Source of the DNA: Escherichia coli O127:H6 str. E2348/69 | GTDB taxonomy: Bacteria > Pseudomonadota > Gammaproteobacteria > Enterobacterales > Enterobacteriaceae | Strand: one strand, 5' to 3' | DNA: 64,000 nucleotides | NCBI RefSeq assembly: GCF_000026545.1 | Contig: NC_011601.1 | In this document: piece after piece, positions 56,096-57,645 of the stretch | Position numbering within the stretch: position 1 is the stretch's first letter | Layout of the letters: each line of letters opens with the position of its first letter | The notes under the pieces: generated by a model | Database searches by the model: none | Told to the model about the DNA's origin: nothing | What the model saw: the letters and a program-made list of their open reading frames with translations, nothing else | Translations under genes and position numbers: made by a program

Positions 56096-57645
56096 CTGTC
56101 TCTTATACACAAATCCCCACCCGGGGATTTGTGATGTCTGTCAGTCTGCTTTAGGGGGACTCTTTCCATCCGGTAGTTTCCTTCCTCCCCGGCAGCGATT
56201 TTTTGAACTTTTTCCTCACCCGTTGATCTTCTCTTATATTTCATTTTCTTCGGGTCTGTTATGGTACTTTCTGATTGTTATTCATGGGCTAACGAGCAGT
56301 TTGGACATGCCCGTCTCGGTGATCCGCGTCGTACACGACGCCTTGTGTCACTGGCCTCTTCTCTCGCTCAGCATGCAGGTCTTTCTATTGTGAAATCATC
56401 CCAGTCCACTGCTCAGGTTGAAGGTGCGTACCGCCTGATACGTAACCCGTCTGTGTCCCCGCAAGCCATTGCCGAAGCCGGATTTACCGCCACTGTAAGG
56501 GCATGTGAGGCTCATCCGCTGCTCCTCGCGCTGGAAGACACCACCACCATTAACTTCAGTCACAGTACGGCATCTGATGACCTGGGGAATACCACCACTA
56601 ACCCGAAGACGCGCGGGCTGCTGGCTCACTCTGTCCTGATGTACGCCCCCGACAGCGCCCTGCCAGTCGGTCTTATCGAACAGCAGCGCTGGAGTCGTGC
56701 CACGGACACCTACGGTGTTAAGCACCAGCGAAAAGAACGTCCCTATGAAGAAAAAGAAAGTTACCGCTGGCAGCAGGCTTCGGAGCGCATGGCCGAACGG
56801 CTGGGGGAGATACAGAAACGGGTAATCACTGTCTGTGACCGGGAAGCGGATATCTGGCATTACCTGCATTATAAAGTCAGCCACGGGCAGCGCTTCGTGG
56901 TGCGTGCAGCACAGAATCGCCGGCTGGAAGAAGCACCCGGCAAGCTCTTCGAACTGCCGGAAGTCCTGGCAACCGCGGGAAGCCACACGCTGAATGTGAT
57001 GCAAAAAGGCGGGCGGGCAGCCCGCCAGGCCCGGATGTTCATCAGTTACAGCGAAGTCAGCATAAAAAATCCCGACAACAGCGGCCAGGCGCTCCCGCTC
57101 ACGTATGTCTGTTGCCGGGAGCAGGCAGAGGACGGCGCCTGCTGGCATCTGCTGACGTCAGAAAAAGTGGCGAGTGCCGCCGATGCGCGACGTATCGTCA
57201 GCCATTACGAGCGACGCTGGCTGATAGAGGAATACCACAAGGCGTGGAAAAGTGGTGGTACATGTGTGGAATCGCTGCGAATGCAGACCCGGGATAACCT
57301 CGAGCGCATGGTGGTTATCAAGGCGTTTATCGCGGTGCGGGTGCTGGGCCTGCGGCAGGGCGGTATCAGTGAAGAAACACAAAATGACAGCTGTGAGAAA
57401 ATACTGACGCCGACAGAGTGGAAACTGCTGTGGGTTAAGCTGGAAGGAAAACCGCTTCCGTCACAGATGCCGACACTGAAATGGGCCTGTCTGAAACTGG
57501 CGAAACTGGGGCGATGGCATGACAGCAAACGCACCGGTCGCCCCGGTTGGGTAGTCATGTGGGATGGCTGGTTCAGACTTCAGGATATGGTTGAGGGTTA
57601 CCTGGTGATGAAGTCTCTTGATCAGGAGATCTGATCAAGAGACAG
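56096..57645 (+). mobile_element. IS50-like insertion sequence (IS4 family), about 1550 bp, inserted in dgcE
   Basis: Left end CTGTCTCTTATACACAAAT (17/19 to IS50 outside end); right end AGATCTGATCAAGAGACAG (reverse complement identical to IS50 inside end CTGTCTCTTGATCAGATCT); single transposase ORF terminating inside the right end; flanked by GTTGGGGG direct repeats. Confidence 0.85.
56261..57634 (+). CDS. IS4-family (IS50/Tn5-like) DDE transposase
   Basis: 457 aa; shares motif blocks with Tn5 Tnp (GDPRRTRRLV, EGAYRLIRNPSVS, VCDREADI, RFVVR, HLLTSE, YERRWLIEEYHKAWKSGG, DNLERMV, LGRWHDSKRTG). Confidence 0.85.
   Translation: MVLSDCYSWANEQFGHARLGDPRRTRRLVSLASSLAQHAGLSIVKSSQSTAQVEGAYRLIRNPSVSPQAIAEAGFTATVRACEAHPLLLALEDTTTINFSHSTASDDLGNTTTNPKTRGLLAHSVLMYAPDSALPVGLIEQQRWSRATDTYGVKHQRKERPYEEKESYRWQQASERMAERLGEIQKRVITVCDREADIWHYLHYKVSHGQRFVVRAAQNRRLEEAPGKLFELPEVLATAGSHTLNVMQKGGRAARQARMFISYSEVSIKNPDNSGQALPLTYVCCREQAEDGACWHLLTSEKVASAADARRIVSHYERRWLIEEYHKAWKSGGTCVESLRMQTRDNLERMVVIKAFIAVRVLGLRQGGISEETQNDSCEKILTPTEWKLLWVKLEGKPLPSQMPTLKWACLKLAKLGRWHDSKRTGRPGWVVMWDGWFRLQDMVEGYLVMKSLDQEI

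Follow-up and report, generated by a model that had tools for sequence, protein, structure and literature searches.

In the EPEC O127:H6 strain E2348/69 the coding sequence of dgcE (yegE) is split by a segment of 1550 bp, and the locus raises the question of what this segment is, how it came to lie at this particular point and what it leaves of DgcE. The whole stretch of DNA that was analysed, 64,000 nucleotides in length, is referred to here as the window. The sequence-only reading had placed an element with IS50-type ends at 56096–57645, and this extent is confirmed by the sequence, the ends and the flanking repeat: the segment is a discrete 1550-bp insertion sequence on the plus strand, interrupting dgcE, with CTGTCTCTTATACACAAAT as its first and AGATCTGATCAAGAGACAG as its last letters. 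Over all 1550 bp it displays 100% nucleotide identity to elements annotated in RefSeq as "IS4-like element ISEc13 family transposase". By ISfinder convention, copies sharing roughly >95% DNA identity are the same IS. Judged on the 100% match to RefSeq-named copies, the element is thus the already catalogued ISEc13 and not a new element, the name resting on NCBI PGAP/RefSeq annotation of identical copies. Full-length ISEc13 is found in 873 of the 5426 complete E. coli genomes and occupies 27–30 places per chromosome in three EPEC E2348/69 / O127:H6 assemblies, besides the copies on plasmid pMAR2; the copies are mutually 99.9–100% identical. A scan of species-representative genomes with 30 nt of the left end gave no match, and further ISEc13 copies were therefore drawn from E. 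coli genomes. Only the site, codon 140 of dgcE, sets the copy of the E2348/69 lineage apart, the element being otherwise ISEc13, and this copy is complete and probably active. An error of assembly, or a stretch native to dgcE, is practically inconceivable as the source of these 1.55 kb. The dgcE::IS junction is present in identical form in three independent assemblies, all of E2348/69 / O127:H6 and the only ones among 5426 complete genomes to have it; the uninterrupted dgcE arrangement is found in 5379 genomes; and the segment recurs at many unrelated loci as a self-contained unit flanked by duplications. The features of the locus are collected in Table 1.

Table 1. Features of the ISEc13 insertion in dgcE, in window coordinates.
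Feature	Position	Strand	Basis or remark
dgcE 5' fragment, codons 1–139 + 1 nt	55678..56095	+	ORF list, translation, RefSeq "MASE1 domain-containing protein, incomplete"
Left half of target motif, CCTCT = YCYCY	56083..56087	+	Directly upstream of left duplication; consensus from 14 other sites
Left copy of 8-bp target-site duplication, GTTGGGGG	56088..56095	+	Sequence
ISEc13, complete copy, 1550 bp	56096..57645	+	100% identity with copies of ISEc13 from E2348/69 and from other strains
Left terminal repeat, CTGTCTCTTATACACAAAT	56096..56114	+	IS50 outside end 17/19; first 16 nt = Tn5 mosaic end
Perfect 11-bp hairpin, 4-nt loop	56108..56133	+	Overlaps inner part of left end
Transposase gene, 457 aa; DDE D93/D193/E323, YREK Y316/R319/E323/K330	56261..57634	+	WP_000244358.1; ORF list, domains
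Perfect 13-bp inverted repeat, 5-nt spacer	57613..57643	+	Overlaps transposase stop codon and right end
Right terminal repeat, reverse complement CTGTCTCTTGATCAGATCT	57627..57645	-	IS50 inside end 19/19
Right copy of 8-bp duplication, GTTGGGGG	57646..57653	+	Sequence
Native G9 run of dgcE allele	57649..57657	+	Intact G9 allele in E110019; motif scoring
dgcE 3' fragment: rest of MASE1, three PAS, GGDEF, degenerate EAL	57654..60553	+	Open to native stop

The single long open reading frame of the element encodes a protein identical to the ISEc13 transposase WP_000244358.1. Three Pfam domains, Tnp_DNA_bind PF14706 (2.8e-19), DDE_Tnp_1 PF01609 (4.8e-07) and Dimer_Tnp_Tn5 PF02281 (9.7e-05), give it the Tn5-type architecture of the IS50 subgroup, with an N-terminal DNA-binding domain, a DDE core and a C-terminal dimerisation domain, and the NCBIfam model NF033590 "IS4 family transposase" matches with 514 bits against a cut-off of 160. 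The alignment with Tn5 transposase is full-length, covering residues 6–453 (E 6e-84) with 42% identity, so the proposal that the protein is conserved only in motif blocks does not hold. Within this alignment D93/D193/E323 match Tn5 D97/D188/E326, while Y316/R319/E323/K330 match Y319/R322/E326/K333. The complete Y-(2)-R-(3)-E-(6)-K motif accompanying the DDE residues is that of the IS50 subgroup, whose members measure 1350–1550 bp and generate direct repeats of 8–9 bp (De Palmenaer et al. 2008, PMC2266710, Table 1); the present element, with 1550 bp and an 8-bp duplication, falls within both ranges. An isoform of IS50 itself (IS50R or IS50L) is ruled out by the 42% amino-acid identity and by the finding that blastn aligns only short patches outside the ends. 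The element is thus a member of the IS4 family, IS50 subgroup, other than IS50, and the earlier description of a distinct IS50-group member was correct, the member being catalogued as ISEc13.

The terminal repeats were compared with those of a real IS50 of 1534 bp located beside aph(3')-IIa on the Salmonella plasmid pMAK2, the outside end of which is CTGACTCTTATACACAAGT and the inside end CTGTCTCTTGATCAGATCT. Oligonucleotides in PMC3347997 confirm the outside-end and mosaic-end sequences. Against the pMAK2 element the match counts of the sequence-only reading are reproduced, 19 of 19 for the right end with the inside end and 17 of 19 for the left end with the outside end. Both ends, CTGTCTCTTATACACAAATC on the left and CTGTCTCTTGATCAGATCTC on the right, fit every specified position of the IS50-subgroup terminal consensus CW------Y---CA-A--W- (De Palmenaer et al. 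2008, PMC2266710), and the right terminal repeat contains two GATC (Dam) sites. Directly within each ISEc13 end lies a perfect hairpin, with a stem of 11 bp on the left and 13 bp on the right, the latter (57613–57643) being formed by an inverted copy of terminal-repeat nucleotides 3–15. The left-end hairpin may act as a barrier or structure for read-through transcripts. Over its first 16 nt, CTGTCTCTTATACACA at 56096–56111, the left end coincides with the engineered Tn5 mosaic end, which also serves as the Nextera adapter sequence; reads from ISEc13 ends could therefore be cut short during adapter trimming. Tn5-derived tools might interact with the ISEc13 transposase in E2348/69, and where ISEc13 copies are abundant the shared sequence may also matter for how stable Tn5-based mutants are.

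Set beside IS50/Tn5 (IS50R transposase; PDB 1MUH, 4DM0), ISEc13 thus shares the three-domain transposase with conserved DDE and YREK residues, and its right end equals the inside end, including both Dam sites and the location of the stop codon within the end. In contrast, the interior DNA of the two elements is almost unalignable, their lengths differ (1550 bp in ISEc13, 1534 bp in IS50), and the ISEc13 transposase has no Met at the Inh start position. The duplication measures 8 bp in ISEc13 and 9 bp in IS50, and the target choice of ISEc13 is strongly selective, whereas only a weak target consensus is said to have been found for Tn5 by Goryshin et al. in 1998. Transposition of ISEc13 presumably proceeds by cut-and-paste, as for IS50/Tn5.

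The length of the duplication was defined by comparison with uninterrupted dgcE alleles, as the earlier reading had proposed. Deletion of the IS together with one 8-bp copy rebuilds an empty site that carries a run of nine Gs. Over 400 bp this site matches at least 16 uninterrupted dgcE genes without a single difference, and dgcE of E110019 displays the same G9 run in an intact coding sequence. Since the empty site is a natural G9 allele, the duplication is exactly 8 bp, GTTGGGGG, and slippage is unnecessary. The flanking repeat had been described as 8 bp on the left followed by extra Gs on the right; the 8-bp repeat stands, and the extra Gs complete the native G9 run, whose last four (57654–57657) form the right half of the target motif discussed below. 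In MG1655 the insertion site reads CTCTGTTGGGGGGTGTTCTGG, that is G6-T-G-TT, and the long G run is absent. An exact 69-mer with the G9 run is found in 66 records and its K-12-type counterpart in 1429, both counts being minima, as a SNP in either flank is enough to prevent an exact match.

A survey of duplication length, for which 24 further ISEc13 copies were collected, gives 8 bp in 16 of the 19 intact copies. In the assemblies other than CP148541.1 every intact copy having a duplication (11/11) has 8 bp, while CP148541.1 displays 8 bp in five of its eight intact copies and apparently 9 bp in three. The same assembly also holds two ISEc13 copies of an anomalous 1549-bp length, and the site between agp and yccJ, duplicated over 9 bp in CP148541.1, is duplicated over 8 bp in FDAARGOS_144; together the 1549-bp copies and the agp-yccJ discrepancy make single-base assembly errors the likely source of the 9-bp cases. 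ISEc13 thus normally duplicates 8 bp, although the three apparent 9-bp copies mean that this length may not be absolute. These data bear on a different history, in which a 9-bp duplication as in IS50 was blurred by later slippage that added or removed Gs in the run. A 9-bp duplication GTTGGGGGG that lost one G from its left copy would indeed yield the observed sequence, the three CP148541.1 copies would offer a precedent for 9 bp, and the length of the G run is unstable at least in assemblies, as frameshifted G8, G10 and G11 alleles occur in finished genomes. Slippage of this kind is nevertheless highly improbable: the 8-bp duplication recreates the intact natural allele base for base and calls for no extra event, the run on the right side is exactly the native G9, and beyond the 16 of 19 copies with 8 bp the 9-bp agp-yccJ site becomes an 8-bp site in another strain. 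The slippage invoked by the sequence-only reading is therefore not borne out, and an exact 8-bp duplication at a G9 allele is retained. Among the finished genomes inspected around this run (records L028–L031, about position 296 in each), G9 is intact in E110019, whereas dgcE genes annotated as "frameshifted" have G10 in FDAARGOS_1059, G8 in 2013C-3513 and G11 in the O111:H2 strain 12A, K-12 having G6TGTT. The G8, G10 and G11 alleles are either real slippage knock-outs or homopolymer sequencing errors.

The position of the insertion was examined against the sites occupied by ISEc13 elsewhere. Across 14 unique sites, all of them insertions that survived selection in genomes and not de novo events, C at -4 and -2 and G at +2 and +4 are found in 14 of 14, giving the target consensus YCYCY-N8-RGRGR, the symmetrised form of which holds about 11.3 bits. 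The majority of sites form strong G+C hairpins about 24 bp past gene ends with the duplication located at the loop; some of these are followed by T runs, which gives them a terminator-like look, and in 8 of 13 the folding energy is -17 kcal/mol or lower. The sites in the coding sequences of dgoD (-4 kcal/mol) and dgcE are poor hairpins that keep the motif. Recognition of the hairpin alone was rejected as the target rule on account of these two sites, which favour a reading of sequence by a symmetric transpososome, to which structure may contribute. With a scoring matrix trained without the dgcE site, the G9 site GCCTCT GTTGGGGG GGGGTC scores 9.45 bits and ranks fourth among the 62,442 positions of the window without the IS, and three of the top five positions are registers of the same dgcE G run. 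The K-12 dgcE allele scores -2.18 in the same register. The motif thus probably drove the choice of site in dgcE and, as far as surviving insertions can tell, the rare G9 allele would have created the target. In broader terms ISEc13 may be a naturally site-selective member of the Tn5 family, although its ends are nearly those of Tn5/IS50, which inserts almost at random; its 8-bp staggered cuts would fall at YCYCY-N8-RGRGR, most often in the apex of a G+C-rich terminator hairpin shortly past a gene. Coupled with this is the proposal that two T-to-G changes, converting the K-12-type GGGGGGTGT into a G9 run, made both a target inside a coding sequence and a slippage-prone homopolymer. The two proposals are put forward tentatively and jointly, as plausible but at somewhat less than even chances. 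The G9 allele would leave dgcE open to ISEc13 insertion and possibly also to frameshifting. Both the preference for this target and the part played by the G9 run are modest side-findings; if the preference is unreported, it provides a naturally occurring model of target-DNA recognition by a Tn5-like transpososome, and, if true, it raises the possibility of cross-mobilisation involving Tn5-derived tools and the ISEc13 transposase in E2348/69 and similar strains.

Entry into short extragenic G+C-rich palindromes is shared with IS1397/ISKpn1 (IS3 family) and ISRm22 (IS4 family), which target REP elements (PMC1525189), and for all of these, ISEc13 included, insertion into extragenic palindromes tends to avoid gene disruption. 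Likewise the carriage of about 30 ISEc13 copies would be tolerated because most occupy terminator hairpins. In contrast to the REP-specific elements, the targets of ISEc13 are diverse terminator-like hairpins that belong to no single repeat family and share only the YCYCY/RGRGR arms, and motif-bearing coding sites that form no hairpin (dgcE, dgoD) are also used. IS186 is a further IS4-family element that targets G/C runs, with the consensus GGGG-N6/7-CCCC. Elsewhere in the window the best unoccupied target, CCCTCC TACGATAT GGAGGC at 22491–22516, scores 10.8 bits, carries no IS and is the sole strict match to YCYCY-N8-RGRGR. Two other positions, ~21405–21430 and 39781–39806, display in the motif scan the same 20-nt context GGCCCC AGTCACGC AGGGAA about 18.4 kb apart, which points to a repeated sequence.

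Removal of the insertion restores an intact DgcE of 1105 residues, with MASE1 at 19–295 (Pfam), three PAS domains, GGDEF at 682–838 and EAL at 898–1088. The MASE1-PAS-PAS-PAS-GGDEF-EAL architecture, together with udk upstream and alkA downstream, identifies the gene as the dgcE (yegE) orthologue. The insertion does disrupt dgcE, as first read, at codon 140; this codon lies inside MASE1, a membrane domain, and not, as had been stated, between MASE1 and the PAS-GGDEF-EAL part. RefSeq lists in order a "MASE1 domain-containing protein, incomplete", the ISEc13 transposase WP_000244358.1 and a "diguanylate cyclase, incomplete", both halves of dgcE being pseudogene fragments, and the disruption in E2348/69 is thus already known and annotated. 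The 5' reading frame continues into the IS as far as 56154 and specifies a truncated MASE1 peptide of 158 residues, the last 18 of them IS-encoded. On the other side the 3' fragment has an open frame of 968 codons, which begins at a TTG 13 nt beyond the transposase stop and runs in the same direction.

MASE1 is needed for DgcE activity in the control of CsgD and the matrix (Pfiffer et al. 2019, PMC6510439), provides the contact site for RdcA, a GTPase that activates DgcE, and also drives DgcE proteolysis (PMC6510439). The coding sequence being split within MASE1 and both halves being pseudogenes, no intact MASE1 domain is encoded and, given its requirement for activity, we infer that E2348/69 is most likely without functional DgcE. 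A literature search found no expression or phenotype data on dgcE or yegE of E2348/69, PMC4100040 dealing with a different strain and a laboratory transposon. The insertion could instead have rewired DgcE, with transposase read-through or an outward promoter expressing an N-terminally truncated form under altered regulation. The 3' fragment would lend itself to this, being fully open and undecayed and starting so close behind the transposase stop on the same strand, and a protein relieved of MASE1-driven proteolysis might be more stable (PMC6510439). Such rewiring is nonetheless quite unlikely, if not to the same degree as the slippage considered above. Deletion of MASE1 abolishes DgcE activity in matrix control, and the RdcA contact site would be lost with it (PMC6510439). 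No outward sigma-70 promoter-like site was found in the IS by a simple scan, and no Shine-Dalgarno sequence is suitably spaced from the TTG of the 3' fragment. The loss of four of about 10 transmembrane segments would probably cause misfolding, and a recent insertion would account just as well for the absence of decay, as the IS copies are 99.9–100% identical. Low-level production of a truncated protein from IS read-through is possible, while loss of DgcE function remains the preferred outcome. E2348/69, the prototype EPEC strain, would then probably be without the "master" diguanylate cyclase that triggers the CsgD/curli matrix in K-12, and for this reason its biofilm and c-di-GMP results should not be generalised. 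The dgcE insertion itself carries little weight, the element being catalogued and the pseudogene annotated in a heavily studied strain.

The state of the interrupted gene points to a recent event. The dN/dS of E2348/69 dgcE against three intact alleles is 0.07–0.09, intact alleles compared with each other giving 0.06–0.12. The 3' 2.9 kb of the gene is 97.9% identical to the next-closest allele. With the IS removed, E2348/69 dgcE (55678–60553) matches E110019 exactly over its first 600 nt and 2022H047 exactly over its last ~900 nt, and the intervening 300-nt bins each contain 13–19 differences. This mosaic distribution and the low dN/dS indicate recombination and not decay, and relaxed selection was rejected as the source of the 97.9% identity on the same grounds. 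An undecayed dgcE and IS copies that are 99.9–100% identical thus point to a recent insertion that would have occurred during the expansion of ISEc13 in the E2348/69 lineage. In the sequence of events proposed here, ISEc13 would have transposed by cut-and-paste into dgcE of the EPEC O127:H6 strain E2348/69, at a site presumably chosen since the G9 allele, CCTCT GTTGGGGG GGGGT, fits YCYCY-N8-RGRGR. The usual 8-bp staggered cut would have left the duplication GTTGGGGG, and the gene, cut at codon 140, would have been reduced to a 158-residue N-terminal stub and a promoterless 3' fragment lacking the first 139 residues. Taken as a whole, transposition of ISEc13 with an 8-bp duplication into a motif-chosen G9 site, leaving DgcE most likely non-functional, is very probably the explanation of this locus.

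Several of the other ISEc13 copies display signs of rearrangement. Two oppositely oriented copies in CP148541.1 (L009, 2304717–2307290, and L010, 2365194–2367767) have exchanged flanks, the left flank of L009, CTCCCCAA, being the right flank of L010 and the left flank of L010, CGAACCAG, the right flank of L009, the pattern left when two such copies recombine and invert some 60 kb. In E2348/69 itself, a complete copy between the fructose PTS IIA gene and glmS on the chromosome (L015) and another between hok and finO on pMAR2 (L016) have no matching duplication; a half-motif on each flank of these copies suggests IS-mediated deletions or rearrangements. The intergenic site CCCTCT CCGCCCGG AGAGGG, between ybaY and an MGMT-family gene, is occupied in four strains (L006, L022, L024 and L025) by ISEc13 variants that differ by about 1.8%, and represents either an old inherited insertion or a hot spot used repeatedly.
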